Virus record (IMG/VR): IMGVR_UViG_2867339791_000001
Coordinates: 7,046 to 71,045 of that record
Length of the DNA: 64,000 nt
Direction: 5' to 3' (one strand)
Source of the DNA: a virus
The translations under genes and the position numbers were made by a program. Below the pieces are notes generated by a model, which saw nothing but the letters and a program-made list of their open reading frames with translations, searched no databases and was not told the DNA's origin. Shown piece after piece: positions 17,983-64,000 of the stretch (position 1 is the first letter of the stretch; each line of letters opens with the position of its first letter).

Positions 17983-18660
17983 GTGACCATGACACCCAAA
18001 CCCAACCCCGCCCGGCATGACAGAAACCTCTGCCTCGGCAAAAAGCACGGCAAGCAACGCCCCGGAGCCAAGCACGGCAAGAACCCCGTCCGTGACGAGC
18101 ACGGCAACGACCTGTGCACCCGCCCCGCCGGCTGGGGAACCGACCACCCCGGGATCGGCCGCTGCAAGCTCCACGGCGGAGCCACCACGAGCCACAAGGT
18201 CGCGGGGATGGTGGCCATGGCCGAGCAAGCCGTGAGGACGTACGGCCTGCCGGTCGACGTGTCCCCCACCGACGCCCTGCTTGACGAGGTGAAGTGGACC
18301 GCCGGGCATGTCGCGTGGCTACGCGCCCGCGTGCAGGAGATGGAAGCCGAGGCCCTGTCCTGGGGCAAGCGGTCGACGGTCGACAAGCAGAGTGGCGAAC
18401 ATCCGGGCGTCGACACCACCGAGGGGGCTGCGCCGCCGGTGCTGCTGGACCTGTACCAGCGGGAACGCAAGCACCTCCTCGACGTGTGCAAGGCCGCGAT
18501 CGCCGCCGGCATCGAGGAGCGGCGCGTCCGCTTGGCCGAGTCGCAGGGCGCGCTGCTGGCCGACGTGATCCGCCGCATCCTCGGCGACCTGAACCTGACC
18601 CCGCAGCAGCAGGCCCTTGTGCCCGACGTGGTGCCCCGGCACCTGCGCGCCGTGTCCTGA
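17983..18660 (+). CDS. terS: Terminase small subunit
   Basis: GRCKLHGG (HGGxSTG-like) motif; helical C-terminus; directly upstream of TerL. Confidence 0.75.
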   Translation: MTMTPKPNPARHDRNLCLGKKHGKQRPGAKHGKNPVRDEHGNDLCTRPAGWGTDHPGIGRCKLHGGATTSHKVAGMVAMAEQAVRTYGLPVDVSPTDALLDEVKWTAGHVAWLRARVQEMEAEALSWGKRSTVDKQSGEHPGVDTTEGAAPPVLLDLYQRERKHLLDVCKAAIAAGIEERRVRLAESQGALLADVIRRILGDLNLTPQQQALVPDVVPRHLRAVS

Positions 18661-37610: not shown

Positions 37611-38192
37611 ATGCCTGCTGTCGCCGCACCGAAGAACGCCCTCAGCTTCGGCGCCGGGTGGCTGTACTACGCCCTGCCCGGCACCAGCGTTCCCGCCTCC
37701 ACCGTCGCCGGATCGGTGTTCACCGACGCCTGGCCCGCCGGCTGGACCCTGCTCGGCGTGACCCGCGAGGGCCACGAGTTCTCCTACGAGCTGGCCACCG
37801 AGCCCGTCGAGGCCGCCGAATACCTGGACCCGATCGCCACCGTCACGACCGGCCGCACCGTCGGCATGACCTTCGAGATGATGCAGATCCACGCCACGAA
37901 CCTGAAGCGGGCGCTCAACGGCGGCAACATCGTCACCACCGGCTCCGGGGGCACCCTGCGGTCGGAGTACACGCCGCCGGCGATGGGCCAGGAAATCCGC
38001 TGCATGATCGGCTGGGAATCCACCGACCTCACCGAGCGGGTCTACGCCGAGCAGGCGTTCCAGGTCGGCAACGTGGCGATCGCCCGCCGCCGAGGCGCGG
38101 CCAACGCCGGCCTGCCCGTCGACTTCCGGTTCGAGCCGGCCGCCGACGGCCAGCCGTTCCACCACATCTTCGCGGGCACCGCCCGCGGCTGA
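37611..38192 (+). CDS. Major tail protein
   Basis: GAGWLYYA..WT.LG.TREG..F.YE; RBS GGAGAGG; position. Confidence 0.85.
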   Translation: MPAVAAPKNALSFGAGWLYYALPGTSVPASTVAGSVFTDAWPAGWTLLGVTREGHEFSYELATEPVEAAEYLDPIATVTTGRTVGMTFEMMQIHATNLKRALNGGNIVTTGSGGTLRSEYTPPAMGQEIRCMIGWESTDLTERVYAEQAFQVGNVAIARRRGAANAGLPVDFRFEPAADGQPFHHIFAGTARG

Positions 38193-49681: not shown

Positions 49682-50057
49682 CCGCGCGCCCCGGGCCCGA
49701 AGTACGGGGCGGCGTCCACGTCCTGGTGCGGCGGCCACATCTGCCGGTCTCCGCACTGCCGGCACTCCCAGGTCCGGTGCATGCCGCCGGGCTGCACGAG
49801 CAGGCCGCGGAGCTGAGGTACACCTGGCCGGGCTTCAGCGGGTGCCGGTCCGGGCCGGCGCAGGTCGCGGGGATCGTCTCCTGCCACACCACCGTCTTCA
49901 CGGCCGGGTCGTACACGGCCCGGTGGGCGGCCCGCCCGCAGTCCCGGCACGCCGGCACGAGCTGCTGCCACGGCTGCACGAGCCCGTGCACCGGGCAGGC
50001 GTACTGGCCCGCCCTGGCCTTGATCCGGCCCCAGTCCACCTGACCCGTCTCTGCCAT
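49678..50057 (-). pseudogene. Frameshifted Cys/His-rich protein
   Basis: ..HPLKPGQVYLSSAACSC in one frame continues as GGMHRTWECRQCGDRQMWPP in another; shift near 49790. Confidence 0.55.
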
Positions 50058-50146
50058 GCCGGCGATCGTACCGGCCTTCATTCGCCGGCCCGAAATGAAG
50101 GTTTTGGGCCGGTTCCTTGCGTTCCAAGATCAGCCCAGGAGGGGTC

Positions 50147-50584
50147 ATGTCCGAGCCCACCAACCTGCCCGCGAAGGGCACGATCCTCGGCCGCGAGCCG
50201 GCCGTCCTCATCAACGCGGTCGCCGCGTTGCTTGCCCTGTTCGTCGCGTTCGGCGCGGACTTCCTCACCGCGAAGCAGGCCGGCGCGGTCGAGGCGTTCC
50301 TGGCCGCCGCGGCGACCGCGTGGCTCCTGTCGAAGGTCCGCCCGATCGCGCCCACCCTGTTCACCGGCGTCATCACCACCGGCGCCACCCTCGCCGCGGC
50401 GTACGGGTTCGAGCTGTCGCAGGAGCAGGTCGGCTCGATCACCGCCGCGTCCATCGCGCTGATGACCGCGCTCGTGATCCGTCCGCAGTCCACCCCGAAG
50501 TCTGACCCGCGGACGATCGACGGCGTTGTGGTGCCCGGTGACGTGCGCGCCGCCGACGTACGCCCGCAGACCCGACTGCGCTGA
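50147..50584 (+). CDS. Holin-like membrane protein
   Basis: GREPAV...four TM segments; RBS AGGAGG. Confidence 0.75.
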   Translation: MSEPTNLPAKGTILGREPAVLINAVAALLALFVAFGADFLTAKQAGAVEAFLAAAATAWLLSKVRPIAPTLFTGVITTGATLAAAYGFELSQEQVGSITAASIALMTALVIRPQSTPKSDPRTIDGVVVPGDVRAADVRPQTRLR

Positions 50585-50626
50585 CCGCTGCTGCCGTCTG
50601 CTCCAGGCTGCTCCCGAACTGGCAGC

Positions 50627-50683
50627 AAGCGCCCCGCCCCACCGACCGCCTCGTGCGGCTGGTGGGGCGGGGCGCTTTCGTCG
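50627..50683. terminator. Bidirectional terminator hairpin, copy 1
   Basis: AAGCGCCCCGCCCCACC..GGTGGGGCGGGGCGCTTT. Confidence 0.75.
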
Positions 50684-51022
50684 TTAACCGGCGACGTAGT
50701 CGGCGTAGATCCAGCCCCTGTCGGTCTCGTACCAGAGCGACCCCTTGGAATTGCGGTACCGCGCCAAGATCACCACGTCGGTGCCGTAGGAGAGATGCGT
50801 GAAGACGTAGCAGCTCGCGTACGGTCCGACGTGCACCGCCGCGCTGGCGACGATGATGTAGGACAGGGTGCTCTCTTTTGCCGGTACGAAGACGTTGCAG
50901 TTGTCTGCGGCCACCGCCGCCCCGGCCTCGGCGGGCGCCGCCATGGCCGGGGTGGCAGTGGCCGGCGTCAACACCAGCCCAGCGAGCAGCACGACCATGA
51001 GCTTCTTGATTTTCTTGGCCAA
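50684..51022 (-). CDS. Secreted SH3b-like small protein
   Basis: Signal peptide KKIKKLMVVLLAG..AMA; HVGP...Y..WY....GWI. Confidence 0.65.
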   Translation of the reverse strand: MAKKIKKLMVVLLAGLVLTPATATPAMAAPAEAGAAVAADNCNVFVPAKESTLSYIIVASAAVHVGPYASCYVFTHLSYGTDVVILARYRNSKGSLWYETDRGWIYADYVAG

Positions 51023-51194
51023 CTTCGGGCCCCCTACCTCGATTGATCGTGCCATTGGGAGGCACGCACTCAGCAGAAACAGTGATCCGCCTCGATCGCC
51101 TTGCCTTGTCGCAACGTAATGAATTCGGGCGGGCGGCAGCAATCCTGGGGCTGGATGCTTGCGGTACTTGGCGCGATACCTGCGCTTGACTCGA

Positions 51195-51249
51195 CGCCCC
51201 CGCGCCACCGATCGCCTCGTGCGGCTGGTGGGGCGGGGCGCTTTCGTCG
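51195..51249. repeat. Second copy of the terminator hairpin
   Basis: CGCCTCGTGCGGCTGGTGGGGCGGGGCGCTTTCGTCG identical to copy 1; left arm degenerate. Confidence 0.8.
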
Positions 51250-51298
51250 CTGGAGGCGGGGGCCACACGACGATGACACGGTCGGTACGGTGCCGGGC

Positions 51299-51997
51299 AT
51301 GCTCCGCCCCCGCCTACTTGCAGCCACCACCCTGCTCCTGGCTCTGCCTGGCTGCGCCAGCGATACCCCGCAACCGACGACGCCCACGAACGTCGCCTCG
51401 CCCCCGTACGCGTCCCCGCCCGGCGGTGCACCGGCCGGCAGCAGCCCGCCCGTGGACGTCTTCGTCACCGACTCCGCCCGGGACTTCTGGGATTGGGTCA
51501 CGGTGGGCGGCGGGGTTCTGTTCGGGCTCGCGTCCGTGGTGGTCGGCATTCTCGCGGTGATCCTCGCCCGCAAGGCGAACATGGCGGCGGAGCGAGCCAA
51601 CGCTGAGGCGAGCAAGGCACGGGCAGCGGTTGCTATCGAGCGGCGGCGCACGTTCGAGTTGGAGATTCTTCGTGATCTCCTAGAGGCGCTGGATCAACCA
51701 ACTTGGCTGGGCGAGGTGATCGAATTCCGCCGGTCGTTTGAAGGCACGTTTGGTGCTCGTCTCAGCCTGTTGCCAGTTGACGAGTTGCCAGCGTGGCGGG
51801 CGGTCGTGGCGATCCGGAAGATGGAAGGACTTGTGGATCTCGTGGGCCGGACGGCCGAGGACGAAGAGGCATTGGAGCAGAACAGGACGCTTGGTGTTCG
51901 GTTTGCGCCGCCTAGTTTGCGCGGGCGGCTGAGGTCCCGGCTGCGGCTCGATGTTGAGGAGGCGGTGGAGCGCCGGATGGTGGAGCGGGACGACTAA
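51299..51997 (+). CDS. Lipoprotein with an additional TM helix and cytoplasmic helical domain
   Basis: Lipobox LPGC; P/T linker; TM VGGGVLFGLASVVVGILAVIL. Confidence 0.6.
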   Translation: MLRPRLLAATTLLLALPGCASDTPQPTTPTNVASPPYASPPGGAPAGSSPPVDVFVTDSARDFWDWVTVGGGVLFGLASVVVGILAVILARKANMAAERANAEASKARAAVAIERRRTFELEILRDLLEALDQPTWLGEVIEFRRSFEGTFGARLSLLPVDELPAWRAVVAIRKMEGLVDLVGRTAEDEEALEQNRTLGVRFAPPSLRGRLRSRLRLDVEEAVERRMVERDD

Positions 51998-52015
51998 GCG
52001 TCGGGCCGCGGGTCG

Positions 52016-52291
52016 CTACCGGCGGCGGGCGGCCAGCTCGCGACGGAACGCCTCCACCCTCGGCCTCGACCAGTCCCGCAGCTCGCAGCCGGCCGGCCCG
52101 CACTGGTGGCAGGCTCGGCCGTTGCGGTGCAGCTCCTCGATCACGCTCGCCAACGCCACGTCCCCGGCCGGTGGGTGCGGGTCCGTGCACGCGCACGCGA
52201 CCTGCTGGCCGGCGACGAGAACGAAGCCGGGGCAGTCGTGACCGAGGTCCAGGGCCCGACCGAGCTGGCATTCAGCGCACCACACGATCAC
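52016..52291 (-). CDS. Small Cys-rich protein
   Basis: CAEC..C..CAC..H..CHQC..C. Confidence 0.55.
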   Translation of the reverse strand: MIVWCAECQLGRALDLGHDCPGFVLVAGQQVACACTDPHPPAGDVALASVIEELHRNGRACHQCGPAGCELRDWSRPRVEAFRRELAARRR

Positions 52292-52485
52292 GCGCCCCCG
52301 TCCAGGGACGGCGGGATGTACGGGGGTTCGCCGACGATCTGAAGGTAGTAGGCGGCGTTGCCTCGGGCTCGGCACACCATGACTCCGCAGATCGGGCAAC
52401 GGTCGGGGTTGGGCCAGTGGTCCGTGATGATGACCTTGGCGGAGAGGATCATCCGGGAGCGGACGAGAGACGGGGCGCTGGTCAT
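52288..52485 (-). CDS. Small zinc-ribbon protein
   Basis: H..CPIC...C; coupled start/stop overlaps. Confidence 0.55.
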   Translation of the reverse strand: MTSAPSLVRSRMILSAKVIITDHWPNPDRCPICGVMVCRARGNAAYYLQIVGEPPYIPPSLDGGA

Positions 52486-52826
52486 CCGCCCACCGCCCGG
52501 GGACGCGCCGGCCGCCGCCGGTGAGGCTCCGCAGGCAGCGCCTTCCGCGTGGTGACCGGCCCCGCCGGAGGGAGCCGCGTCACGGGGGCCGGCCTCGACC
52601 AGCTCACGAGCCGGTCGTACGGGGCCTCCGGGCTGACCGTCAGCAGGTCCATCGCCGCGTCGAAGTAGTAGGTGGCCAGCTGCACCGCCAGGCCCGCCAC
52701 GTCCCGCTCGTGCTCGCGAAGCAGGGTGGCCTTCGCCTGCGGGCACGGCCAGTCGTGCTCGCACCGCCGGCACTTCCAGCTCGGCCGGCGCGGCGCGTGC
52801 ACGGGCGCGCTGGCCGCCGCGGTCAC
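52482..52826 (-). CDS. HxPxRPxWxCxxCxxxWPC-family small protein
   Basis: HAPRRPSWKCRRCEHDWPC; family common in actinomycete mobile elements. Confidence 0.7.
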   Translation of the reverse strand: MTAAASAPVHAPRRPSWKCRRCEHDWPCPQAKATLLREHERDVAGLAVQLATYYFDAAMDLLTVSPEAPYDRLVSWSRPAPVTRLPPAGPVTTRKALPAEPHRRRPARPRAVGG

Positions 52827-53035
52827 TCCCGCCTCCCGGTGTCGCGACCGATCTGCCCCGGGGGGACAACCGGGGACACGGTGGGGATCGTGGAGCGACC
52901 GTCCCAGCCGGGCTCGACCGGCGGCTCCTCGTCCTCGCCTCGGGCCGGCAGAGCGCCGGAGCGGTACGGGTAGACGGTGGCGGGGCCGGTCGCGTCGAGC
53001 GGGGCGTCGGTGCGCCGCCGCTTGCAGGGCCACAT
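52823..53035 (-). CDS. Small hypothetical protein
   Basis: Coupled to the downstream GTG; RBS GGAGGGAG. Confidence 0.45.
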   Translation of the reverse strand: MWPCKRRRTDAPLDATGPATVYPYRSGALPARGEDEEPPVEPGWDGRSTIPTVSPVVPPGQIGRDTGRRE

Positions 53036-53285
53036 CAGCCGGTGCTCCCTCCTCGTCCGGAGGGCGGGAGAGGCCACCCAGGTACCGCCCGCTCCCGCCC
53101 CGCTCGGGGGACCGGGGCGACGGCGGTGCTCGCACACACCGTTGGGTGCGGGCCTTGACACCGCCGCCGCCCCAACCGTCCGGTCTCGCACGGGGGAACA
53201 GGACCGGACGATCTGCGACAGACGGTAAGCGCGCGACTACTGCCCCACCGGCACGCGGCGGGGGACTACCCCACGGCGGGGTACC

Positions 53286-54491
53286 TCAGACGACGCCGAC
53301 CCGCTCCGCGAGCACCCGCAGGTCACCCCGCGTCGTCGGCGTCTCCCGGGCCAGCAGTTCCCGCACGGTCCCGCGCATCAGCAGGTTCAGGCGGGACTCC
53401 TCCGGCGACTCCCGGTCAGCGCGCAGCAGCATCGTGATCGAGGCGAGGTCTTCCCGCTTCGCCGCGTACGCCCGCGCCAGGTGGGTGAGGTGCGAGTGGC
53501 GGCGCTCGATGCTCGGTGACCGTTCGATGTCGACCCGCTCCCCGATCCGGATCGCCTCACCCGGCCGGGACAGTTCGAGGACGGCGGCGGCCCGGTGGAT
53601 CGCCACGTTCGTCGGCCCGAAGAAGATGAAATGGTGCTCGGTCTCGCCGGTGCGGCGGGCCAGCTCGTCGGCCTCGTCGAGCACCTGGTGGGTGCGCCGC
53701 TCGTCGCGCAGCCGCGCGTACTGGATCGACAGCAGCAGCCGCAGCCCGCCCAGCACCGACAGCCGGACCGGGTCGTCGTCGTTGTCGCGTTCGAGGTCGG
53801 CGATCGCCTGCCGGCACATCTCCACCGACTCCTCGGTGTGCCCCCGGTTCGATAGCACCTGGCCCATGTTCCAGGCGGCCGACGCCCGGTAGGCGGGGTC
53901 GTCGGCCTCGTAGGAGGCGTTCAGCGCCCGGTCGGCGGCGATGACGGCGATGTCGTTCGCGCCGACCCGCTTGGCGTACGCGCGCACGAGCAGGTACAGG
54001 TCGGCGGTGACCCGCTGCGCCTCCCGCCGCTGGTTGCCGTCGAGGTTGGCGACGACGGCCCGCGCCGAGTGGATGAGGTCGGGCAGCACCGGCGCCGTGT
54101 ATGTGTACCGCTGCCGGGACTGGTACCAGGTTGTCCAGGCCAGACGCACGGCGGCCCGCAGCTCGTCAAGGGGCGGCGGCTGCTCGACGACCGGGGCGTA
54201 GGAGTGGATGGCGGCCCGCAGCGGCTTCACAGACTCGTGTTCGGCGGGGTCGTCGGGCATGGTGCCGAGCGGCTGACCGGTGAGCTGGTACAGGTCACGG
54301 ACACCGAGGATCCTCGCGATCTCGAACCAGTCGGCCAGGCTGTTGACCGACCGTTCGCCGCTCTCCCACTTCCGCCACGCACCGACGGACTTGCCCATGA
54401 GTTGGGCGCACACTTCCTGGGTGAGGCCGCGGCGACGGCGGTAGAGCTTGATCCGCTCGCCTGGCGGCATCGGGTCCATGGTCTGGTCCAC
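53286..54491 (-). CDS. XRE-family HTH regulator with TPR-like C-terminal domain
   Basis: GERIKLYRRRRGLTQ..AQLMGKSVGAWRKWESG; FGPTNVAIH; RBS GGAGG before GTG 54491. Confidence 0.9.
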   Translation of the reverse strand: MDQTMDPMPPGERIKLYRRRRGLTQEVCAQLMGKSVGAWRKWESGERSVNSLADWFEIARILGVRDLYQLTGQPLGTMPDDPAEHESVKPLRAAIHSYAPVVEQPPPLDELRAAVRLAWTTWYQSRQRYTYTAPVLPDLIHSARAVVANLDGNQRREAQRVTADLYLLVRAYAKRVGANDIAVIAADRALNASYEADDPAYRASAAWNMGQVLSNRGHTEESVEMCRQAIADLERDNDDDPVRLSVLGGLRLLLSIQYARLRDERRTHQVLDEADELARRTGETEHHFIFFGPTNVAIHRAAAVLELSRPGEAIRIGERVDIERSPSIERRHSHLTHLARAYAAKREDLASITMLLRADRESPEESRLNLLMRGTVRELLARETPTTRGDLRVLAERVGVV

Positions 54492-54668
54492 GGTGGGCAC
54501 CTCCCGCACGAGGTTGTCTGCCACCATCGACGGTACTCGCCATCGTGGATGAAGGTAGGATCGGATCGAACAACCCCACGGGGGAGGCCAGCCCGCACGC
54601 CGGCCTCCCCCGGTTCCGTTTCCGGCGAATCGTGCCTGGCCAGGCGGCCGGCGGCTGATGATCGTGGG

Positions 54669-54902
54669 ATGTGGCAGCGGGCCGACGTGCCAGCCGTCGG
54701 CGGTCCGGTCGACGGCCGCAACCTGCTCGTGCCCACGAACGACGAGGGGCTGCCACCCGAGACGATCGACCAGTCGTGGCTGTGGATCGAGTACGGCGGC
54801 GAGCTGCTGGACGCCGATGTCGACGGGCAGTACGAGTTGGAGAGCCAAGCCGGCGCCGGCCCGCCGTGGGTGTACGTGTGGGTGCCGAATCGGCGGCCCT
54901 GA
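54669..54902 (+). CDS. Small hypothetical protein
   Basis: VGGPVDG..Y..YVW motif; divergent from the XRE gene. Confidence 0.55.
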   Translation: MWQRADVPAVGGPVDGRNLLVPTNDEGLPPETIDQSWLWIEYGGELLDADVDGQYELESQAGAGPPWVYVWVPNRRP

Positions 54903-54917
54903 GCAGGAGGTCGGCCG

Positions 54918-55586
54918 TTGTGGCGGCGAGTCCGTACGATCGGCGCTGTGCTGCCGCCCAGCGTCTCGCTGACCCTGTTCCTGTTCTGGGCCGAACTCGG
55001 GGACGTGGCGACGTGGATCGGAGCGCTTGCGAACGCCGCCACGCTCGGCCTCGCCCTCGCCGCCGGCATAGTCAGCTACAACATCTACAAGATTGAGTCT
55101 GGCCGCGATCGGCGGGCCGAGGACGAACGACGGGAACGCGCGTTCGACGCGAGACGCGACCAAGCGTCGCTCGTGTCCGCCTGGTTCGACAAGAGGGCGG
55201 TCTCGTCCGTCGTGATCGCATCCTCCGACGGGGTGAAGCGCATCCCGAACAACACAGCCGGAGCGCGCATCCTGAACGCTTCCAACTTGCCGATCTACGA
55301 TGTGCGCGTCAGCTTCCGACTTTTCCCAGCCATGCTCCGGCTCGGAGACCCGATCCGAGCGGTGCCGCCGCACAAGGGGGAGGTTGTCTCACGGCTGCCG
55401 GATGAGATGTGGCAGTTACTCCCGGAGGGCGACGTGGAACTCCTGGTCGACGTCGCCTTGGAGTTCCGCGACGCGGCTGGGCGCTGCTGGAAGCGTGATT
55501 TCGACGGGTTCCTGAGTGAGGCGCCGACTCTGATCTCCGAACTATTCGCCATCTTGGATCGGTCGACGCCGGTCGAGCGCGGCTGA
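54918..55586 (+). CDS. TM-anchored protein, paralogue A
   Basis: GDVATWIGALAN..YKIESGRDRRAEDERRER; start uncertain. Confidence 0.7.
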   Translation: MWRRVRTIGAVLPPSVSLTLFLFWAELGDVATWIGALANAATLGLALAAGIVSYNIYKIESGRDRRAEDERRERAFDARRDQASLVSAWFDKRAVSSVVIASSDGVKRIPNNTAGARILNASNLPIYDVRVSFRLFPAMLRLGDPIRAVPPHKGEVVSRLPDEMWQLLPEGDVELLVDVALEFRDAAGRCWKRDFDGFLSEAPTLISELFAILDRSTPVERG

Positions 55587-55754
55587 CCGCTCGGCGGCCT
55601 CCCACAGGCCGAGCTGCCGCCACAGCCACCGCTTGCACGGCCCCCGGTGGCGGGTGATCACCCAGGTCATGCCCGGTGTTAGCGGGTAGGCCACGCTCCG
55701 CAGGCTACGCAGTTCCGCCCCGTGGCGCTGCTGCCGCGAACGCGACAGTGAAGG

Positions 55755-56377
55755 TTGTGGCGGCTCCGTACGCTCGGCGCGTGCTGCCGCAATACGCCCT
55801 GCTGCCCGCGTGGCTGTCCGACGTCGAGTTGGGAGACGTGGCGACGTGGGTCGGCGCGCTTGCCAACGTCGCCACTCTTGCTCTTGCGACTGTCGCTGCC
55901 GTGGTCGGGTTCCGCGTCTACAAGATTGAGTCTGGCCGTGATCGACGGGCCGAGGACGAGCGACGAGAACGCGCGCTCGATGCTAGACGCAGCCAGGCCC
56001 AGCTCGTTTCTATCTGGTACAACGGACCGCGGCACGCGCCAGGGGTCGCGTACGTCCTCAACGCCTCCAATTTGCCCGCATACGAACTGTTTCTCCACTT
56101 CACCGTAGAGCCGCCCGTGGAATTTCTGGGAGTGTTTGAGGACGCTACCGAGGATTGGCCCTGGAACTACCTCTTCGGTTTCGAGGACATCAAAGTGCTG
56201 CCACCTCACATCGGCCCTCAGGCGGTCCCGCTGACGGAGTCCCTTGTAGCGGCGATCCAGGCTTGCGATCTCCCTTTCGAAGGCATCTACGAAGGCATCC
56301 GGGTCACAATGGCATTCCGTGACGCGGCAGGGCGGATGTGGCGGCGCGAGGAGAACGGCGTGCTAACCCAGTTGTGA
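55755..56377 (+). CDS. TM-anchored protein, paralogue B
   Basis: GDVATWVGALAN..YKIESGRDRRAEDERRER; start uncertain. Confidence 0.7.
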
Positions 56378-56404
56378 ATGCCGGGAAGAAGCGAGACCGG
56401 GCAG

Positions 56405-56989
56405 CTACCGGCGTCGCCGCCACCGCAGCCAGACCGTGACAGCGGTCGCCACCAGCACAGAGATCACCGCCGTCTGCCGCCACGACCCGCCGGCCTCGAC
56501 CCCGCCGACCGCCGTCAACGCGACCAGGGCGAACCACAGCCCCAACCAGCCGGTGGCGCGGAGGCGGGTGCGGACGACGTGCCGGGGCAGGTGCCTGCGT
56601 CGGCGAGCCACCGACCCGGGCCGGTTGTGGACAACGTTGTGGATAGGCCCCTCGGCGATGATCGCTGCGGCCTCGGCCGCCTCCACCTCCACGCGCGTCC
56701 GCCACACCCGAGGGTCGCGTTCCCAGCAGGCCACCTGCGGGGCCCACACCTGCCGGTCCATGTGCTCCGCCCACCTCGCGGGCGCGGTCCGCTCCGTGAT
56801 GCCGATGTAGAGCAGGTGTTGCCAGGCGCCGAGCAGCCACGCCAGGAGCCGCGGCCACAGGCCCTTCTCCGGCGGCAGGTCACCCCACGCCCGGTACAGC
56901 CGGAACTCGCCGGCGGGGGCCCAGTGCGCCGGCCGCTGGTCGGGGTCGCGGTGCCAGGAGCGTCCGGTGACGCTGGTCCGGAGGGTCAC
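56405..56989 (-). CDS. GIY-YIG nuclease with C-terminal TM helices
   Basis: LYR..LLYIGIT..RWAEH..AE..AI..E.P.HN..HN; two C-terminal hydrophobic helices. Confidence 0.75.
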   Translation of the reverse strand: MTLRTSVTGRSWHRDPDQRPAHWAPAGEFRLYRAWGDLPPEKGLWPRLLAWLLGAWQHLLYIGITERTAPARWAEHMDRQVWAPQVACWERDPRVWRTRVEVEAAEAAAIIAEGPIHNVVHNRPGSVARRRRHLPRHVVRTRLRATGWLGLWFALVALTAVGGVEAGGSWRQTAVISVLVATAVTVWLRWRRRR

Positions 56990-57052
56990 GGTCGGTGCCC
57001 GACACGCGGCCCGTTGTCGACGTGAGTGGCGTTGACATGCCATCCTGTGCTC

Positions 57053-57322
57053 ATGACGTACACGCAGAGCGACAGGGATCGCTGGGTTCGCCAGTTGCGC
57101 GACGCAGCGATCGAGCTGACCTGCGCTGGCGTCCCCGAGGGCGAGTTGCACGACCTGGTGTTGGAGGGCGTCGTCGAGGGCCAGCGGCTCAACGCGCTGC
57201 GCGCCGCCACGGCCACCTCGGACACGGTGCCCGCGCCGCGCAGCCCCGACGCCACCCGCCCCGCTGTCACGCCGGAGCCGGGTAGCGCCCTCGCGCGGCT
57301 CGCCAGCGGCGCCGGCATCTAG
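57053..57322 (+). CDS. Small helical protein convergent with the FtsK/TraB-like gene
   Basis: Open frame ending in a 4-nt overlap with the FtsK stop; shares a motif with it. Confidence 0.55.
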   Translation: MTYTQSDRDRWVRQLRDAAIELTCAGVPEGELHDLVLEGVVEGQRLNALRAATATSDTVPAPRSPDATRPAVTPEPGSALARLASGAGI

Positions 57323-59577
57323 TCCGCCAGCCCGTAGTACGGGCCGTTCGGCCGGGTCTCGTCTCGCACCAGCTCCCCCTGCTCGACCAGCTTGCCGAGC
57401 AGTTCACCAACGCGCTGCTTGGACACGTCCACTCCCCACCGCTGAAAGATCGCGGTGCGGATCTGCGTGGCGGTGAGCATGGTCGGGTGCTCGTCGTGCA
57501 CGACCAGCAGGATCGACTGCCGCGTGTTCGGTGCCTGCCCCGCTGACGCCGGCACCAGCTCGGCCGACGCGGTCGGGGCGTCGATGCGTGGGCGGACCGG
57601 TTCGGCGTCCACGGCCATGTGCGCGTCGGACAGCAACGCCTCCGCGACCGCGTCCACATCGTCCGGGGCGGTCGGCTGCTGCACGGCCGGCGGCTCGGGC
57701 TGCTGCTGGGAAGGGATGACGGGCTTCGCGGGCTCCTGCTGGGTGGCCTGCGCGGTGGGCTTCGCGTCGGCCGCTACCCCAGCGCCGCGGGCGAGCCGGT
57801 CCAGCGCCGACCCCGGCTTGGCGATCGACGTCGGTGTCGGTGCCGGCCGGGACGGGCCGGGCTCGTCGTCCTCGGGCAGATCCTCGTCGCGGAGCTGGGC
57901 CAACATCGCGGCCTTCCGCTTCCACCGGTTTTCGTAGGCGACGCCCGCAAGCACGTCGTCGATCACCGGGATCCCGAGCAGTGGGGCGAACTTCGCGTCG
58001 TTGGGGTCGCGGCCGTCGAGCACGTCCGCGAGCGTGACGCGGCTGGCGATCAGCTTCCCTCGGTCGTCGAGCTTCGGCCGCAGGTGCGCGGTGGCGATCG
58101 CGTGCCGCTCGATGGAGGCGATGTCGACGTTCACGGTGCGGCCGAGGACCGGCCGGTAGTCCCGGTCGGTGCGGTAGATGAACGCGGAACCCTTGTGGAG
58201 CAGCCGCACCCGGCCCGGGTTCTTGCCCAGGACGTGGTCGTACTCGCCCTCTTCGTCCATGCGCAGGCACACCCGGATGCCCTGGACGGCGCGCAGCGAC
58301 TTCTCCAACAGGTCGCTGGTGCCTCGCAGGACGGACTGGATGACGCGGACGCCCTCGGCGCGGCCGATCTGCGCGATGCGGGCGATGTACTGGTCGACCA
58401 GCGCGGCGAGCAGCCCGATTGCCTGGCGGATCTCACCGCCCTCGTCGGTGATGATGACGATCGCTGGCATGTCCTTGTCGACGGGCAGCACGGTGGTGTT
58501 CGCCTGCCGCTTGCGGCGCATCGAGAACCGGTTGGTCTTGCGGTCCTTGGCGATGGCGATCGCGATGGCGCACATGACGGCCGCCTCGACTTCGTCCTCC
58601 GCGACCCAGTCGATCGTGGGTGTGTCCACCTCCCCGCGGGCGAAGGGGGTGAGCCACGGGCCGGCGACACCGCCACCGTTCGGGTCGATGACCCAGATCA
58701 GGGCGTCGATGCAGCGTGCCAGCCGCATGATGATCCGGTGGAGCAGGGTCGTCTTGCCGGACCCGGTGGTCCCGCCGACGATCATGCCCTTCTCCCGCAG
58801 GCACACCGTCATCGGCTCGCCGCGCGGGGTGGTGGCCACATCCATCTCGTCGTAGATCGACGCCGCTGTGGTGGGCTCCGAGATCAGCCGCTCGTCGGCG
58901 AGGCAGTCCCGCAGCATCACGTCGAGGATCGCCGCGCCCTGGTGGTCGGCGTCGAGGATCCGCACGACGCAGCCCTGCGGCAGCTTCACGGCCCCGGCGA
59001 CGTCGTCGGCGAGGGTCGAGTCCGACAGCTTCTTGACGGTCAGGCCCTCGGGCAGGTCGATGTGGACCTGCATGCCGTCCTGCGGGGCGTCCGCCCACGG
59101 CCGAACGCCCCGGACGGTGATGGGTGCCTTGGCGAGCCGGCGCAGCAACGCCTGCCACGCCGCCTCCTCGTCGGTCTGCTCCTGGTGTACGACCGGCGTG
59201 ACGGTCTGCTGCTGGACGACCTGGGCGACGGCGACCGCCGGAGCGAAGATCGCTTCCAGGATGAACAGGGCCCCAGCGCCGACGAGGACCGCCACCGTGC
59301 GGGTGAGCGACCAGCCGGAGTAGGCGACCAGCGTCATCCAGTAGCTGCACCCGACGACGGCCGCCAGGCGGTGCGCCAGCGCGATGCCCCGGTCGGTCGC
59401 CGCGGTGATCAGCCCGGTGAGGAGCAGTCCGAGCGCCCCGGCGCCGATGGCGAGGATCCAGCTCTGGTTGCCCCGCTCGGTGCCCTCGCGCAGGACAGCC
59501 GCCAGGACGAGGACGACGATCGTCCACGCCGGCACCCACGTCGCCCCGCTGGGGCGGCTGCCCTGCTGCTCGTTCAC
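57319..59577 (-). CDS. FtsK/SpoIIIE-family TraB-like conjugative DNA translocase
   Basis: Four N-terminal TM helices; GGTTGSGKT; WVIDPNGG; IITDEG; GRAEGV; C-terminal wHTH-like domain; RBS GGAGGGAGG. Confidence 0.88.
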   Translation of the reverse strand: MNEQQGSRPSGATWVPAWTIVVLVLAAVLREGTERGNQSWILAIGAGALGLLLTGLITAATDRGIALAHRLAAVVGCSYWMTLVAYSGWSLTRTVAVLVGAGALFILEAIFAPAVAVAQVVQQQTVTPVVHQEQTDEEAAWQALLRRLAKAPITVRGVRPWADAPQDGMQVHIDLPEGLTVKKLSDSTLADDVAGAVKLPQGCVVRILDADHQGAAILDVMLRDCLADERLISEPTTAASIYDEMDVATTPRGEPMTVCLREKGMIVGGTTGSGKTTLLHRIIMRLARCIDALIWVIDPNGGGVAGPWLTPFARGEVDTPTIDWVAEDEVEAAVMCAIAIAIAKDRKTNRFSMRRKRQANTTVLPVDKDMPAIVIITDEGGEIRQAIGLLAALVDQYIARIAQIGRAEGVRVIQSVLRGTSDLLEKSLRAVQGIRVCLRMDEEGEYDHVLGKNPGRVRLLHKGSAFIYRTDRDYRPVLGRTVNVDIASIERHAIATAHLRPKLDDRGKLIASRVTLADVLDGRDPNDAKFAPLLGIPVIDDVLAGVAYENRWKRKAAMLAQLRDEDLPEDDEPGPSRPAPTPTSIAKPGSALDRLARGAGVAADAKPTAQATQQEPAKPVIPSQQQPEPPAVQQPTAPDDVDAVAEALLSDAHMAVDAEPVRPRIDAPTASAELVPASAGQAPNTRQSILLVVHDEHPTMLTATQIRTAIFQRWGVDVSKQRVGELLGKLVEQGELVRDETRPNGPYYGLAD

Positions 59578-59618
59578 GGTGGTCCTCCCTCCGCTCGTCG
59601 TCATCCCGTCGGGTCCGA

Positions 59619-61553
59619 TCAGACGTCCCGCTCGGCGGCTGCGATGTCGGCGCGCTTCTCCGCCGCCCGGCTGCCACGGACACCGTTCATGCGGTCCTCG
59701 TCGCCGAAGTGGCCGCGTTCGTACATGCCGTGCAGCGTCTCGGCGCGGGCCGACAGGGTCCGGTAGCGGGCCATCACGGCCTCGGCCTCGTCCTTGATCG
59801 CGGCGAGGTCGGAGGCGACGGATTCGACCTCGGCGACGAGCGGCTTCATGGCCGGCAGATCGTTCTCGCCGTGAGTGGCGAGCTGCTTGACGCTTGTCGC
59901 CAGCACCCCCGCCCGCTCGACGAGCGGGTTCAGGTCGGTGGTGACCTCGTCGATCGCGGGTGCGATCTCCTTCAGGGTGCGGCCCCACCGTTGGAGGCTC
60001 ATGTCTTCGGTGATGCGGATTCCCATCGTGTTGCTCCTTCCGTGCGACGCCTCCCGGGGCGGAGGCGTCGGCGTCTTCGTGGGCGCGGGGCGCGGAGTGT
60101 GCTCCCGGGCCGGGGGTGGGGTGGTGGTGGCCTGCCGGCCGGTGGTGGCCGGCTGGGCGGGCTGCTTCGGCTGGTTGGCCGGCTGCGCGGCCTTTGGCGG
60201 TTCCGGCTCGGTCGGGTCGGGCCGCCGCGGCTCCGGCTTCCGGGTCGGCTGCTGGCCGGTCGGCTTCGGCTTCGGTGCGCCGACGCCGGATACCGCGTCG
60301 GCGCCCTGCGTGCCTCCCGTCACCAGGTCCCGGCCCAGCCGACGCCAGAACCCGGGACCCTTCTTCTTGCCTTCGCCGGTGTGGTTACCAGCCCCGGCGT
60401 CGTGGTTGCGGCCGTTGCCGCCCCGCGTTCCCCGTCGGGTCCGCCGGCCGTTCGCCGACGGCCCGTCCCCGTGCGATCCCCCGCCCCCGTGCGATCCCCC
60501 CGCGCCGCCGCCGGAACCTCCCGGCGACCCGCCGCCCTTGCGGCGCAGGAACGACGGCATCCGCAGCCGGAACCCGCCGGACTTGCCGGGCTTCGACCCA
60601 CCCCCGCCCGAACCGCTGCCGCCTCCGTGGCCGGAGCTGCCGTGGCCCGCAGCGCCGCCGCCGGACCCGCTGCCGCCGCCGGGGTTCTTCCGGCCCAGCC
60701 GGTTACGGAGCCGACTGAGCAGCCCGGACTTCCTGCCGCCGTGGCCGCCGCCGTGGCCGTCACCGGAGCCGCCGCCAGGGCCGCCACCCGACGAGCCGCC
60801 ACCACCGTGACGGCCGCCACCGAACAGACCCGCGAGCCGGCCCAGCAGACCGCCACGACCCCGGGCGCGGTGCCGGCCACGATGCCGACCGCCGCTAGCC
60901 CCGCCGTCGCCGGACCCGCCGCCGTCGCCGTCCCGGCCGTCACGGTCCCCGCCACGACGGCGACGGCGACGGCGCAGCCACGAGAACAGCCCGCGACGCC
61001 CGGCGTCGCCCTTCTTGTCGCCGCCACCCTGTCCGCCGTTGCGGGACCGGGCTGCGGCCTTCTTCGCGACGCTGGCGCGACGCCACGCCAACGCCGCCCA
61101 GAACAGCAGCATCAGCGACGCAAGGTGCACGGCGATCGCCCACCGCCAGCCCGCGGCCAGCCACAGCAGCACCTCCGCGCCGACGAACATGAGGGCGGCG
61201 GTGGCGAGCACCTGCGGGGTCATGAGCTGGGTCATGAGCTTGGCGACCAGGGGGTGGATCTGCTTGGTGCGGACCTTGACCTGGTCGCCGGTGGCCTGCT
61301 TCGCGCCGGCCTGGCCGGTGGTGGCCGTCCCGGTGGTTCCCGCCTCCGGCGCGGGGGCCGGGGGCGGGCCGACGAGGGTGGGAGGCGCCGGCGGTACGGC
61401 CGGCCCGGTCACGGTCTGCGACTGGTCAACCCCTTGACCGGTCAGGGGGCTGACCGGCGAAGGAACCTCCCCCTCTGAGCGCGCAGGAGCCGCCTCAGCG
61501 GGCGCGTCAAGGGATTGACGCCTCCGCCAGGTCAAGGGGTTGACGCTACGCAC
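59619..61553 (-). CDS. TM + Gly/Pro-rich protein with a TraA-like C-terminal domain (internal start at 60026)
   Basis: RBS GGAGG at the 5' end; two TMs; Gly/Arg-rich linker; internal RBS AAGGAG-ATG; C-terminus RGSRAAEKRADI. Confidence 0.6.
   Translation of the reverse strand: MRSVNPLTWRRRQSLDAPAEAAPARSEGEVPSPVSPLTGQGVDQSQTVTGPAVPPAPPTLVGPPPAPAPEAGTTGTATTGQAGAKQATGDQVKVRTKQIHPLVAKLMTQLMTPQVLATAALMFVGAEVLLWLAAGWRWAIAVHLASLMLLFWAALAWRRASVAKKAAARSRNGGQGGGDKKGDAGRRGLFSWLRRRRRRRGGDRDGRDGDGGGSGDGGASGGRHRGRHRARGRGGLLGRLAGLFGGGRHGGGGSSGGGPGGGSGDGHGGGHGGRKSGLLSRLRNRLGRKNPGGGSGSGGGAAGHGSSGHGGGSGSGGGGSKPGKSGGFRLRMPSFLRRKGGGSPGGSGGGAGGSHGGGGSHGDGPSANGRRTRRGTRGGNGRNHDAGAGNHTGEGKKKGPGFWRRLGRDLVTGGTQGADAVSGVGAPKPKPTGQQPTRKPEPRRPDPTEPEPPKAAQPANQPKQPAQPATTGRQATTTPPPAREHTPRPAPTKTPTPPPREASHGRSNTMGIRITEDMSLQRWGRTLKEIAPAIDEVTTDLNPLVERAGVLATSVKQLATHGENDLPAMKPLVAEVESVASDLAAIKDEAEAVMARYRTLSARAETLHGMYERGHFGDEDRMNGVRGSRAAEKRADIAAAERDV
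61425..61544. repeat. Four 14-bp palindromes GTCA(A/G)-N4-(T/C)TGAC
   Basis: 61425-61438, 61441-61454, 61506-61519, 61531-61544. Confidence 0.75.
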
Positions 61554-61562
61554 AGTCACCTC

Positions 61563-61772
61563 CTACTTGAACAACTTCGTGAGCCAGTCGATGACGATCC
61601 GGGTGGCGTTGAGCACGGCGTCGGCGCAGTCCTCCAAGAGCCCGCCGTCGCTGGCCTTGATGATCACGCCGAGGAGCAGGGCGACCACGATCACCGAGAT
61701 CGGAGGACGGTTCCGCCACCACATCCACACGAGCAAGAGCAGCAGCACCGCGCCGAGGGCGGCGGGCGTCAC
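61563..61772 (-). CDS. Small two-TM protein (Spd-like)
   Basis: GTGA coupling; hydrophobic. Confidence 0.65.
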   Translation of the reverse strand: MTPAALGAVLLLLLVWMWWRNRPPISVIVVALLLGVIIKASDGGLLEDCADAVLNATRIVIDWLTKLFK

Positions 61773-61957
61773 CGCAGGCACCACCTGACGATGGCGAACG
61801 CGGTCACGACGGCGAAGAGGATGTTGACCACCCACAGCGCGAGGGCCAGCGTCTTCCGCCTGCGGGCGCGAGCCTTCGCCCTCAGCCCCTTGTGGACGAG
61901 CGCCCGGACCTCGGTCGCGCTCAGGTGACCTGGTGGGGTCGTGTCAGCAGATGCCAT
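61769..61957 (-). CDS. Small TM protein (Spd-like)
   Basis: RBS AGGAGG; basic stretch followed by a TM helix. Confidence 0.65.
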   Translation of the reverse strand: MASADTTPPGHLSATEVRALVHKGLRAKARARRRKTLALALWVVNILFAVVTAFAIVRWCLR

Positions 61958-61972
61958 GGTCGTACCTCCTGG

Positions 61973-63745
61973 TTAGCGGGTTGTCACGGTGCGACCGTTG
62001 GCGCCGGAGGTGACCGGCTCCTTCGGGTTGGCGATCTGGCTGGCGGGGACGTCGGCGAGGCTCGCCTGGTACTCGTCGCGGTGCTTGAACCAGCGGCGGA
62101 CGGTGCTCTCGTTAGAGCCGGCCGCCTTGGCGACGTCGATCCACGTCGCGGTCGGGTTGGCGTCGCGGTACGCGAACGCGGCCTTCTGGGCGTCGCTCCA
62201 CGGTGGGCGGCGCGGTGACCGGTCCGGCGTCGCCCCGCCAGGGCGCGGCGGCGTCACGCCGTCACGGCTGGCAGGCGTCACAGCGTCACGGGCCGGCGTC
62301 GTCACCGACGTCACGGCGTCGGCGCGGGCCTTCGCCACGGCGGCGTCACGCTCGGCCGTCATCCGCTCCACCATGGCGGCCAGGTCGGCGGCGTGGCGGG
62401 CGTCGCGGTCGTCGAGCTGCCGGCGCAGCCCGTCGGCCTCATCCCGCGCCATCGCCGCCAGAGCGGCCTGCCGGCCGGCCTCCCGGTTCGCGTCGCGGAG
62501 CTGCACCCGCAGCCCGTCGGCTTCAGCGATCATCCCGACTACGCTCTGCCGGGCGGCGGCGGCCTCGGAGCGGGCGCGGGCAGCGTCGGCCTCGGCCACC
62601 TGCGCACGCTCCTCGGCGGACCGCAGCGCGCGGCCGGCCTGGTCGAGTTCCCGCGACGCGGTCTCGAACAGGGCGGTCGTGTCGGCCAGCTCGACGCGCA
62701 CGGCGTCCAGCTCGGCGCGGACGGCGACGAGTTCGGCGCGCACGGCCTCGACTTTCGCGGCGGCGGCGGCCTTCTCGGCGGCGAGCGCATCGGCGTGCCG
62801 CTGTTGCTCCTCGGCCAAGGCGGCAGCGGCCTGCTTCGCCTGGTCGGCGATCTTCGCGGTGAGCTGCCGCAGCCTCAGCCACGGCCACAGCCGAGCCCGA
62901 CCGGCGGCCGGCAGGCCGGCGGCGGGCACGTCGACCCGGTAGCGGGCGATCCGCTTCGCGCGGCGCACGGTTTCGAGGTGAGCCAGCGCGTGACGGACCG
63001 ATGCGTACCGGGCGGTCTGCTCCGGGCCCGCGTTGGCCCGCAGCGGGAGCGGCGGATGGTTCTGCCAGGCGAGCCACGCGGCGGCCGTGTCGGCAGGCGA
63101 GGTGATCCAGCGCAGGCCGAAGGTGGGGTTGACGCGGACGACGCGCGGGCCGCCAACCTCGCCCATGAGCCCGAGGATGATGTGCAGGAGCAGCATCCCG
63201 AGCAGGGACAGCAGCCCCAGGTAGAAGCCACCCGCGTTCGACCCGTCGGCGCTGCCTGCCTCGTGGTCGAAGTTGATCGCCGCTGAGGCGATCGTCGCGA
63301 TCCACACGACCCGGTAGGCCGCGTCGGCGGGCTTCTGCTTCTTGACGGCGGCGAGGGTGAGCAGGGCGCAGGCGATGGCGACACCGTCGAGGGTCAGCGG
63401 GACGAGGTATTCCCAGCCGTCGTTCCAGTGCAGCGTGTCCCGGCCGAAGGCGACGAGTCCCTTGAAGCTGCCGGCGAGGACGGCGATGAGGAAGGCGATG
63501 GTGGCGGCGATAGCGGCGGCGAAGAGGCCGCTGCTGCTCTTGCCAGCGTCACGGCGCCGTACCGCGATGACGGCGAGCGTGCCGATGAGCAGCAGTTGGG
63601 CAGCGACGGCGGTGAGCCACAGCCAGGTGGGGACGGCGTCGAGTGCCGTGGCGATGCCGTCGAGCACGGTCCGCCAGATCGGGTTGTCGGCCGCGAGGGC
63701 GGCGGTGGGCCCCGGGCTGGTGGTGTGCTCGACGGTCATCGTCAC
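61973..63745 (-). CDS. DUF2637/SpdA-like membrane protein with coiled coil and C-terminal HTH
   Basis: SFKGL.AFG...WEYLVPLTLDG..IASAAINF; long coiled coil; TWIDVAKAAGSNESTVRRW. Confidence 0.8.
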   Translation of the reverse strand: MTMTVEHTTSPGPTAALAADNPIWRTVLDGIATALDAVPTWLWLTAVAAQLLLIGTLAVIAVRRRDAGKSSSGLFAAAIAATIAFLIAVLAGSFKGLVAFGRDTLHWNDGWEYLVPLTLDGVAIACALLTLAAVKKQKPADAAYRVVWIATIASAAINFDHEAGSADGSNAGGFYLGLLSLLGMLLLHIILGLMGEVGGPRVVRVNPTFGLRWITSPADTAAAWLAWQNHPPLPLRANAGPEQTARYASVRHALAHLETVRRAKRIARYRVDVPAAGLPAAGRARLWPWLRLRQLTAKIADQAKQAAAALAEEQQRHADALAAEKAAAAAKVEAVRAELVAVRAELDAVRVELADTTALFETASRELDQAGRALRSAEERAQVAEADAARARSEAAAARQSVVGMIAEADGLRVQLRDANREAGRQAALAAMARDEADGLRRQLDDRDARHAADLAAMVERMTAERDAAVAKARADAVTSVTTPARDAVTPASRDGVTPPRPGGATPDRSPRRPPWSDAQKAAFAYRDANPTATWIDVAKAAGSNESTVRRWFKHRDEYQASLADVPASQIANPKEPVTSGANGRTVTTR

Positions 63746-63816
63746 GGGCGTTCCTCCCCTGGTCCGCTGTGTGCGTTCACGCTTCGGAGCGCGTCCGGTA
63801 CAGTCTGCCACAAGTA

Positions 63817-63942
63817 TTGGAGGTTTTGGAGGTTAGGGAGGTGCTGCATGTCTTGGAGGTTCATTCACAACCGTCTCCGGTCTGCCTGCTCCCACCCCTC
63901 CCCTGCGTCTGCAAAACTGTGGTGACCTTGGAGGTTTTGCAG
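63817..63942. promoter_or_regulatory. Divergent control region with 4x TTGGAGGTT and inverted TCTGCAAAAC/GTTTTGCAGA
   Basis: Copies at 63817, 63826, 63853, 63928; inverted repeat 63908-63942. Confidence 0.6.
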
Positions 63943-63954
63943 ACGGGGGAACCG

Positions 63955-64000
63955 GTGCCCGAGGGCAGGTGGATGAGGATCGGCGAAGTCGCCGAGGCCC
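63955..64000 (+). CDS. 3'-truncated HTH protein (MRIGEVAE..., MerR/excisionase-like)
   Basis: GTG after GGGGGA; WMRIGEVAEA. Confidence 0.5.
   Translation, partial: MPEGRWMRIGEVAEA

Follow-up and report, generated by a model that had tools for sequence, protein, structure and literature searches.

A plasmid-type DNA-translocation cassette as an integral part of a 114-kb temperate tailed prophage

The window examined here is a 64,000-nucleotide stretch of IMG/VR virus record IMGVR_UViG_2867339791_000001, which corresponds to G000:C2:937385-1001384 in a 1.19-Mb contig of a 7.18-Mb genome, the host being apparently, as the names of homologues indicate, a soil actinomycete, Micromonospora. Positions are those of the window unless a contig or locus is named. 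Five co-oriented minus-strand genes at 57319-63745, detected by codon-usage gene calling, constitute a plasmid-type cassette for translocation of double-stranded DNA (dsDNA). They are built into a single 114.2-kb temperate tailed prophage, which is itself integrated in the 3' end of a tRNA-Val(TAC) gene. From the analysis below, the function of the cassette is most likely the capsid-independent spread of phage DNA. New here are the observation that the phage copies are the whole plasmid-type cassette and not a lone ATPase, its fixed place in a tRNA-rich 110-kb Micromonospora prophage lineage, and the exact boundaries of the element, which exclude an actinomycete integrative and conjugative element (AICE) in tandem with the phage.

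The cassette within a single prophage

Since the G+C content of 70-74% renders raw lists of open reading frames (ORFs) of the window noisy, genes were called by a codon-usage score trained on long ORFs. The cassette consists of the following genes (TM, transmembrane; aa, amino acids).

61973-63745, minus strand: DUF2637 membrane protein, 590 aa, first gene of the module (PF10935, TM prediction)
61769-61957, minus strand: tiny membrane protein, 62 aa, one TM helix (gene calling, TM prediction)
61563-61784, minus strand: tiny membrane protein, 73 aa, two TM helices (gene calling, TM prediction)
59619-61412, minus strand: large partner membrane protein, 597 aa (gene calling, TM prediction)
57319-59577, minus strand: FtsK/TraB-like dsDNA translocase, 752 aa (PF01580, phrog_31069, NF041214, AlphaFold2 model)

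The spacing between these genes (42 bp, 150 bp, an overlap, and 15 bp) fits a single leftward operon, and all five ORFs are open with host-like codon usage. An earlier note on this DNA had proposed such a leftward operon of DUF2637, two small TM, TraA-like, and FtsK/TraB genes, and the proposal was borne out by the gene calling together with PF10935 and PF01580. The cassette is located about 66-72 kb from attL (the left attachment site), beyond the tail and lysis genes and the phage regulator, and its transcription runs opposite to that of the late genes. At the DNA level, 56001-64000 matched entries of phage and plasmid collections over short stretches only (65-84% identity), almost all of them in the FtsK-like gene, indicating an element without close sequenced relative in the collections searched. 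A scan of 50000-64000 for consensus promoters and terminators yielded nothing useful. The 90-nt tRNA-Arg(CCG) predicted by ARAGORN at 60202-60291 (plus strand) falls inside the Gly-rich coding part of the 597-aa gene and is probably a false positive; Rfam sees no tRNA there.

The same note had placed the operon next to a full set of virion genes, and the contiguity is real: PHROG matches extend over 18684-47808, and no att site, recombinase, or host gene was found between the virion block and the cassette. As judged from these matches, the virion genes, including the connector, are intact and in the canonical order of tailed phages. The virion and replication genes are the following.

8366-9073, plus strand: DnaC-like loader (PF01695, 6.2e-8)
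9052-10473, plus strand: DnaB-like helicase (phrog_19, 5.9e-107)
17983-50584, plus strand: packaging, head, tail, and probable lysis block (PHROG matches of 1e-10 to 1e-107)
18684-20159, plus strand: TerL (PHROGs)
20178-24272, plus strand: portal fusion (PHROGs)
25108-27423, plus strand: protease (PHROGs)
27953-28888, plus strand: major capsid (PHROGs)
37611-38192, plus strand: major tail (PHROGs)
38911-42771, plus strand: tape measure (PHROGs)
up to 47808, plus strand: tail proteins (PHROGs)

From attL, the gene order is CI-type repressor, rightward early genes, DnaC/DnaB, packaging-head-tail-probable lysis, HTH-TPR (helix-turn-helix, tetratricopeptide repeat) regulator, and cassette; to the right of the cassette follow a DprA/PRTase pair, a UvrD-like helicase, a tRNA array, a Prok-RING protein, a kinase, an HAD phosphatase, and the integrase.

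The boundaries, which the earlier note had left to be defined from the flanks and attL/attR, were set by an exact 44-bp direct repeat. Its two copies, at L002:11174-11217 (the attL side; found via a left-flank search) and at C2:1042724, are the only ones detected by blastn-short in the genome, with no third att-like copy between them, and the repeat is the 3' part of the tRNA-Val(TAC) gene (L004:1340-1412, minus strand). The recombinase is as follows.

L004:135-1091: tyrosine integrase (PF00589, 8e-25; XerC-like, 1e-38)

This integrase is situated 248 bp from tRNA-Val, on the inner side of the right repeat, and is the sole recombinase between the repeats, the window itself containing neither tyrosine nor serine recombinase. 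Homology of the right flank in four congeneric genomes begins at the first base of the repeat (in a fifth, G009, it extends 24 bp further), and in the same genomes the tRNA is preceded on its left by sequence homologous to the left flank of attL. The repeat and the flank homology in these congeners indicate a precise insertion of 114.2 kb, C2:928558-1042767 (window -8826 to 105383). A CI-like repressor adjoins attL, and the criteria of a temperate tailed phage, that is, integrase, attL/attR pair, repressor, and empty site in relatives, are all represented.

A separate att site or a second integrase had been set beforehand as the refutation of a single element; both were looked for, and neither was found. 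The proposal of a phage-AICE hybrid, on the other hand, was not upheld. Based on the AICE criteria in PMC3218068 and PMC2440964, an integrase next to att at a tRNA 3' end and a Tra protein with FtsK/SpoIIIE domain are both present. Of the two replicases searched, however, RepSA (PF20199) was detected only at C1:716.7-717.6 kb and Prim-Pol (PF09250) only at C2:897.3 kb, 31 kb outside attL, and these matches elsewhere in the genome serve as an internal control for the absence of both from the element, which carries the phage-type DnaB/DnaC instead. The AICE compactness (Int, Rep, and Tra within 30-60 kb) is also lacking, the element being 114.2 kb long with about 45 kb from the integrase to the FtsK-like gene. 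In addition, the syntenic cassette in a phage lineage and its occurrence in unrelated phages including the plaque-isolated Galactica (see below) argue against a recent fusion with an AICE.

The possibility of two elements, an AICE or an integrated plasmid in tandem with or nested in a smaller prophage, is largely refuted and is regarded as extremely improbable. The major capsid relatives nearest in the database belong to phages of 44-48 kb, the ATPase differs between collinear prophages, and a 50% homologue in G306 is carried on a 20-kb contig together with a serine integrase and a Prim-Pol, all of which would agree with two elements; nevertheless, the 114 kb hold two att-repeat copies and one recombinase, RepSA and Prim-Pol are missing from them though both are encoded elsewhere in the genome, and the genes on both sides of the cassette keep the same order in the prophages of G472 and G345 across about 110 kb, including the tRNA array. 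A length of 114 kb might seem excessive for this capsid family, but two independent collinear prophages keep about 110 kb, and the objection was dropped.

Elsewhere in the genome, a classical AICE signature, RepSA beside a tyrosine integrase, was observed at G000:C1:716720-718943. The genome's only Prim-Pol gene has a 32% paralogue of the HTH-TPR regulator as its neighbour; the pair (G000:C2:895738-897741), about 31 kb to the left of attL, probably marks another mobile element. Just left of attL, the stretch L002:~1000-11170 (C2:918.4-928.5 kb) encodes a Sel1-repeat protein, a PLP (pyridoxal phosphate) decarboxylase, and other genes; the gene at L002:162-959 is 0.1-7 kb from tRNA-Val in several congeners versus 10 kb here, and the stretch possibly represents the decayed remains of an earlier island at this tRNA.

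The translocase, its partners, and candidate sites

The conjugation and spreading machine demonstrated for the Streptomyces plasmids pSVH1 and pIJ101 consists of TraB and Spd proteins (PMC4447253): TraB hexamers bind direct 8-bp repeats (clt) via the C-terminal domain and pump dsDNA, SpdB2 is a four-TM pore-former, and SpdB2 and other Spd proteins are needed for intramycelial spread (PMC4447253). The 752-aa protein of the cassette passed the PF01580 cut-off marginally (24.5 bits versus 24; 2.1e-5), matched phrog_31069 ('FtsK/SpoIIIE-like') at 1.1e-53, and over residues 15-442 matched NF041214 (plasmid_TraB of NCBIfam) at E 1e-10. In an AlphaFold2 model built on an alignment of 36 homologues (mean predicted local distance difference test, pLDDT, 80.9), three to four membrane helices (residues 11-111) and a small beta domain are followed by the motor (about 245-500, with Walker A at 268-277 and DE at 378-379 in the sequence), a disordered linker (570-680), and a closing C-terminal winged helix (685-750, pLDDT 86-96), where a weak HTH_33 match was also detected (700-728). 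The top Foldseek match of the model was the FtsK motor (1.7e-17), then the conjugation coupling protein TcpA (2.4e-15), with HerA-type defence ATPases as weaker matches. By the model and the alignment, the ATPase has the functional architecture of TraB (PMC4447253): its N-terminus anchors it in the membrane, its FtsK-like motor keeps the Walker motifs intact, and its C-terminus folds as a winged helix.

Residues G268, GKTT 274-277, DE 378-379, and R418 are invariant across the 36 homologues. This invariance of the catalytic residues, together with the five open frames of host-like codon usage and the intact virion genes, speaks against a relic, in which a decayed and inactive cassette would be a passive passenger of a cryptic prophage. 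Nothing specific favours such a relic; in-frame stops were seen in the capsid genes of some relatives (G324 and G012). It is considered very improbable.

The 590-aa protein matched PF10935 (DUF2637) over residues 76-226 (27.1 bits versus a cut-off of 22.8; 4.4e-6), and the same match was recovered by a six-frame search of the genome. It includes four TM helices in the DUF2637 domain, a long coiled coil (about 293-478) with SMC-like matches, and a C-terminal HTH (515-567), a weak HTH_Tnp_1 match being also noted; this architecture resembles that of SpdB2. The protein gave no match in the phage collection, three short plasmid matches only, and no relative with solved structure. For the 62-aa and 73-aa proteins, no family match was found in Pfam, PHROGs, or NCBIfam. 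The 597-aa protein is composed of two N-terminal TM helices, a disordered region of about 350 aa (Gly/Arg-rich and then Pro-rich), and a helical C-terminal domain of about 150 aa, which adjoins FtsK homologues in L007 (77% identical), G176 (44%), and G062 (43%). The 'TraA-like' gene of the earlier note is thus present as a membrane protein gene, but the label itself gained no HMM (hidden Markov model) match in Pfam, PHROGs, or NCBIfam, the only hint of TraA-like identity being a weak embedding match (0.76) to a TraA-like cluster. Embedding leads also suggested the newer Pfam families TraA-like (PF28214) and SpdB_N (PF27080) as possible families of cassette proteins.

Candidate sites and flanking genes of the module are listed below.

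61424-61545: four copies of the 14-bp palindrome GTCA(A/G)-N4-(C/T)TGAC (read directly), in the 150-bp gap within the operon
63817-63936: four direct repeats TTGGAGGT(T) (k-mer scan), in the divergent promoter region upstream of the DUF2637 gene
63919 or 63973 (start) to L001:152 (window 64152), plus strand: MerR/excisionase-type (HTH_17) small gene (reading frame; the L037 homologue has PF12728 HTH_17)
57047-57322, plus strand: 91-aa small gene, convergent with the FtsK-like gene (sequence)
56405-56989, minus strand: endonuclease-like protein, 194 aa, with C-terminal TM helix (phrog_3312, 5.4e-11; TM prediction)
53286-54527, minus strand: HTH_31 and TPR transcriptional regulator of a phage family, 413 aa (PF13560, 2.1e-8; phrog_5823, 6.4e-85, full length)

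All four copies of the palindrome in the 114-kb element are in this cluster, against 25 in the 7.18-Mb genome, and they are candidate operators for a dimeric HTH regulator. The TTGGAGGT motif occurs nine times in the element and 77 times in the genome (both strands counted), and its four copies between the DUF2637 gene and the divergent HTH_17 gene are candidate clt-like recognition repeats for a TraB-type protein, or operators. In the 87%-identical relative L037, the palindrome cluster and three TTGGAGGT copies are kept at the same places, and both are missing from the 41% relative G472; such a pattern is the one expected of sites that would co-vary with their binding protein. Other clt-like repeat clusters in the module from the k-mer scan were composition-driven and were set aside.

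Among the flanking genes, the 91-aa gene is kept beside FtsK in L007 (57%), G062 (43%), and G176 (33%). The C-terminus of its product, PGSALARLASGAGI (57278-57319, plus strand), nearly repeats the FtsK-linker motif PGSALDRLARGAGV (57775-57816, minus strand), PGSAL is conserved in the linker consensus of the 36 homologues, and the 91-aa protein may be a mimic or regulator. The endonuclease-like gene is co-oriented with, and downstream of, the FtsK-like gene and is 75% identical at the same place in L007. The 413-aa regulator sits between the lysis region and the module, and its syntenic counterparts in the prophages of G472 and G345 are 72% identical. Between this regulator and the nuclease, tandem paralogues at 54948-55586 and 55748-56377 (plus strand) were observed, 41% identical, with one N-terminal TM helix each and diverged C-termini.

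Conservation, proposed function, and alternatives

Within 200 congeneric genomes, a homologue of the capsid was found in seven and of the FtsK-like protein in 11; two unpublished genomes (G019 and G158) enter tallies only, and no claim depends on either. The prophages of G472 and G345 are collinear with the present one over about 108-110 kb, from the early genes to the tRNA array, with the tRNA genes in the same order. At the syntenic place, G472 carries the regulator (72% identical), FtsK (41%), the partner (33%), and DUF2637 (39%), while G345 carries the regulator and DUF2637 (39%) plus a different ATPase of 798 aa with a weak PF01580 match; synteny in other genomes was among the checks that the earlier note had proposed. 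Homologues of the virion block are collinear also in G465, and in G480, a more distant capsid relative, the five-gene layout is located 19 kb downstream of the capsid gene. As far as gene order in these genomes indicates, the cassette holds a fixed position in a phage lineage. In the G345 prophage, a Cas7 gene (L025:10894-11700; PF05107, 8e-77) was observed between the regulator and the FtsK-type module.

At E <= 1e-10, 133 homologues of the ATPase were collected, mostly 'hypothetical' proteins of Micromonosporaceae and metagenome contigs, and most of them carry no context label; a homologue is present in six phage records and in 28 IMG/VR contigs. The cassette stands beside tail, holin, or tape-measure genes in Polymorphospora (G062), Actinoplanes, M. 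chersina, and G480, and among small phage-like genes in Verrucosispora, on a 90-kb JGI metagenome contig, and in an 87% relative. The neighbours of the 50% homologue in G306 include, besides the serine integrase and Prim-Pol, a weak terminase match. In Hiyaavirus Galactica (plaque-isolated, 81 kb), gp96-gp99 show the order and orientation seen here, two membrane proteins with a small protein between them followed by an FtsK-like translocase, and no integrase was detected in this phage. The Galactica ATPase matches the query at E 9e-37, and homologues are also found in Hiyaavirus Hiyaa, Spocter, and Keanu and in Thermobifida phage P1312, the Hiyaavirus and P1312 ATPases being 28-33% identical. 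These are other phage lineages of 60-83 kb, whereas the capsid here is akin to those of Gordonia and Mycobacterium phages, and the Hiyaavirus partners are dissimilar in sequence except for a weak match in the DUF2637 region (E 0.014).

On the plasmid side, pSQ10 (Nocardiopsis, 18 kb) and the Streptomyces linear plasmid NZ_CP108657.1 (54 kb) carry a DUF2637/HTH protein, small membrane proteins, a large protein, and FtsK in the same order, which agrees with the plasmid-like layout that had been claimed for this DNA, and pSQ10-type small plasmids carry little besides the transfer region. Plasmid and phage versions are equally distant from the query ATPase, at about 31% identity.

As the cassette has every architectural element of a TraB/Spd machine, the same mode of action is favoured for the phage genome. 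The best explanation overall, held with somewhat better than even confidence, is that a prophage-integral plasmid-type cassette pumps phage DNA for capsid-independent spread. The ATPase would form a hexameric membrane pore, and its winged helix would recognise short sequences repeated on the phage genome, for which the four TTGGAGGT copies upstream of the operon are the best candidate. Together with DUF2637 and the other Spd-like partners, the ATPase would then pump excised or replicating double-stranded phage DNA across hyphal cross-walls or into a fused hypha, and the outcome would be capsid-independent spread within or between mycelia. Expression would probably be repressed by local HTH regulators at the four intra-operon palindromes.

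A number of observations weigh against this explanation. The ATPase fails the equivalog cut-off of NF041214 (40.8 bits versus 800) and, at about 31% identity to plasmid proteins, is a distant relative only of characterised TraB. Pairwise BLAST of the cassette partners with those of plasmids and of Hiyaavirus revealed no significant similarity, so that order and architecture alone match. The three closest capsid relatives searched (G465, G345, and G324) are without a close homologue of this FtsK, indicating that the ATPase allele is exchangeable. The TTGGAGGT repeats are not kept in the 41% relative G472 and could be mere operators, and no GntR Kil-Kor (TraR/KorA) regulator adjoins the module here. 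Furthermore, the PHROGs category of such FtsK-like genes is 'moron, auxiliary metabolic gene and host takeover', and the membrane nuclease, the paralogous TM proteins, and the DprA/PRTase pair are defence-like neighbours.

The last two points lead to an alternative in which the cassette serves lysogenic conversion or defence, excluding superinfecting phages or conjugative plasmids or working as an abortive system, with the phage's own genome not moved. Its orientation opposite to the late genes, in an accessory region after lysis among such neighbours, would suit this role, as would the swapping of the ATPase between otherwise collinear prophages, as in defence islands, and the HerA-type defence ATPases among the weaker fold matches. 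The best fold matches, however, are FtsK and TcpA, not HerA; the same five-gene layout constitutes the transfer region of small plasmids such as pSQ10; the cassette is present in Galactica, where no integrase was found; and the predicted sequence-reading winged helix would be better suited to self-recognition than to exclusion. Altogether a defence role is judged to be unlikely.

A role in segregation or maintenance, with the pump clearing or partitioning replicating or excised phage DNA across closing septa (spores, hyphal compartments), much as chromosomal FtsK/SpoIIIE handles the chromosome, and no transfer to other mycelia, is rated rather improbable. Chromosomal FtsK needs no dedicated polytopic partner set, and plasmid transfer regions have the gene order conserved here, even though the ATPase is of the FtsK/SpoIIIE family by both sequence and fold, Galactica, in which no integrase was detected, carries the cassette, and replication, segregation, or development-linked roles have been suggested by actinophage authors (PMC11536984, PMC4569894, PMC13587820). 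This role overlaps intramycelial spreading, and the two are hard to tell apart by sequence.

Returning to capsid-independent spread, a broader proposal is made only tentatively and is rather doubtful, namely that it is routine for temperate phages of mycelial actinomycetes to retain a TraB/Spd-type pump by which their whole double-stranded genome (here 114 kb) is moved without capsids, between compartments and mycelia. If so, the prophage would in effect also be a conjugative element. Recipients that lack the receptor or resist the phage could then come within its reach, and in these bacteria gene flow by conjugation and by phage infection would no longer be two distinct routes. FtsK-like genes are already routinely annotated in actinophages (PMC11536984, PMC13587820, PMC4569894), and Thoma et al. 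suggested in passing, for SpdB2 homologues, the spread of phage DNA through a multicellular host (PMC4447253). The present analysis turns the vague FtsK annotation into a testable idea, the capsid-independent spread of phage DNA in a multicellular host, which, if true, would bear on host range and phage resistance in antibiotic-producing actinomycetes, on models of gene flow in soil, and on how annotation pipelines using FtsK as a conjugation marker separate prophages, AICEs, and plasmids.

Other genes of the prophage and comparison with known systems

To the right of the cassette, the tRNA array was identified as below, and downstream of it are the Prok-RING protein, an AAA_33 kinase, and an HAD_SAK phosphatase.

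L003:1071-7687 (window 85071-91687): array of 35 tRNAs, about 6.6 kb, with an ATP-dependent DNA ligase among the tRNAs

Several further features of the prophage were observed. A 588-aa ORF at 13225-14991 (minus strand), opposite to the early genes, lies in a low-GC island at 13100-15200 (50-59% GC versus about 71% around); it was skipped by the codon-usage caller and has no relative with solved structure, and it resembles a foreign gene of recent acquisition, perhaps with a moron or defence role. At 785-2809 (plus strand), a 674-aa protein matches DUF5131 (phage Gp37/Gp68) in two stretches, with a LAGLIDADG-like domain and a weak HNH match between, and this insertion may be an intein or homing endonuclease. 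Where the gene that directly precedes the large terminase gene starts, four copies of AGCACGGCAA (17878-18100) form a candidate site for pac or for binding of the small terminase. Four to five direct copies of CCCAAAACGGGGGACC within 130 bp at L001:17925-18052 (window 81925-82052) look like iterons, possibly of an origin or regulator array.

With the TraB-Spd plasmids, the element shares a membrane-anchored FtsK-like ATPase with winged helix, preceded by four-TM, tiny TM, and large membrane proteins, and, as candidate counterparts of plasmid clt, direct 8-bp repeats near the cassette (PMC4447253); it differs from these plasmids in that the cassette resides in a 114-kb tailed prophage without RepSA or Prim-Pol. 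With the AICEs pSAM2, SLP1, and pMEA300 (PMC2440964, PMC3218068), it shares a tyrosine integrase, integration at a tRNA 3' end, and an FtsK/SpoIIIE-type Tra, whereas AICEs are about 9-24 kb and the present element, at 114 kb, includes a full virion set and phage replication genes and is without RepSA/Prim-Pol.

A plasmid-phage with a working tra region is already known in pZL12, according to the papers that cite it (PMC3583192, PMC4487206): pZL12 and its relative pSLE1 are described there as carrying virion genes and a tra gene with adjacent genes required for conjugal transfer on one replicon (Zhong et al. 2010, J Bacteriol 192:3747). When the query FtsK was compared with Streptomyces plasmids of about 86-94 kb, partial matches only, of 27-33%, were obtained. 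By the descriptions in the citing papers, pZL12 is a precedent for a phage that also conjugates (PMC4487206, PMC3583192); it exists autonomously, as a circular plasmid of about 90 kb that carries ParAB, whereas the element described here is integrated at a tRNA by a tyrosine integrase.

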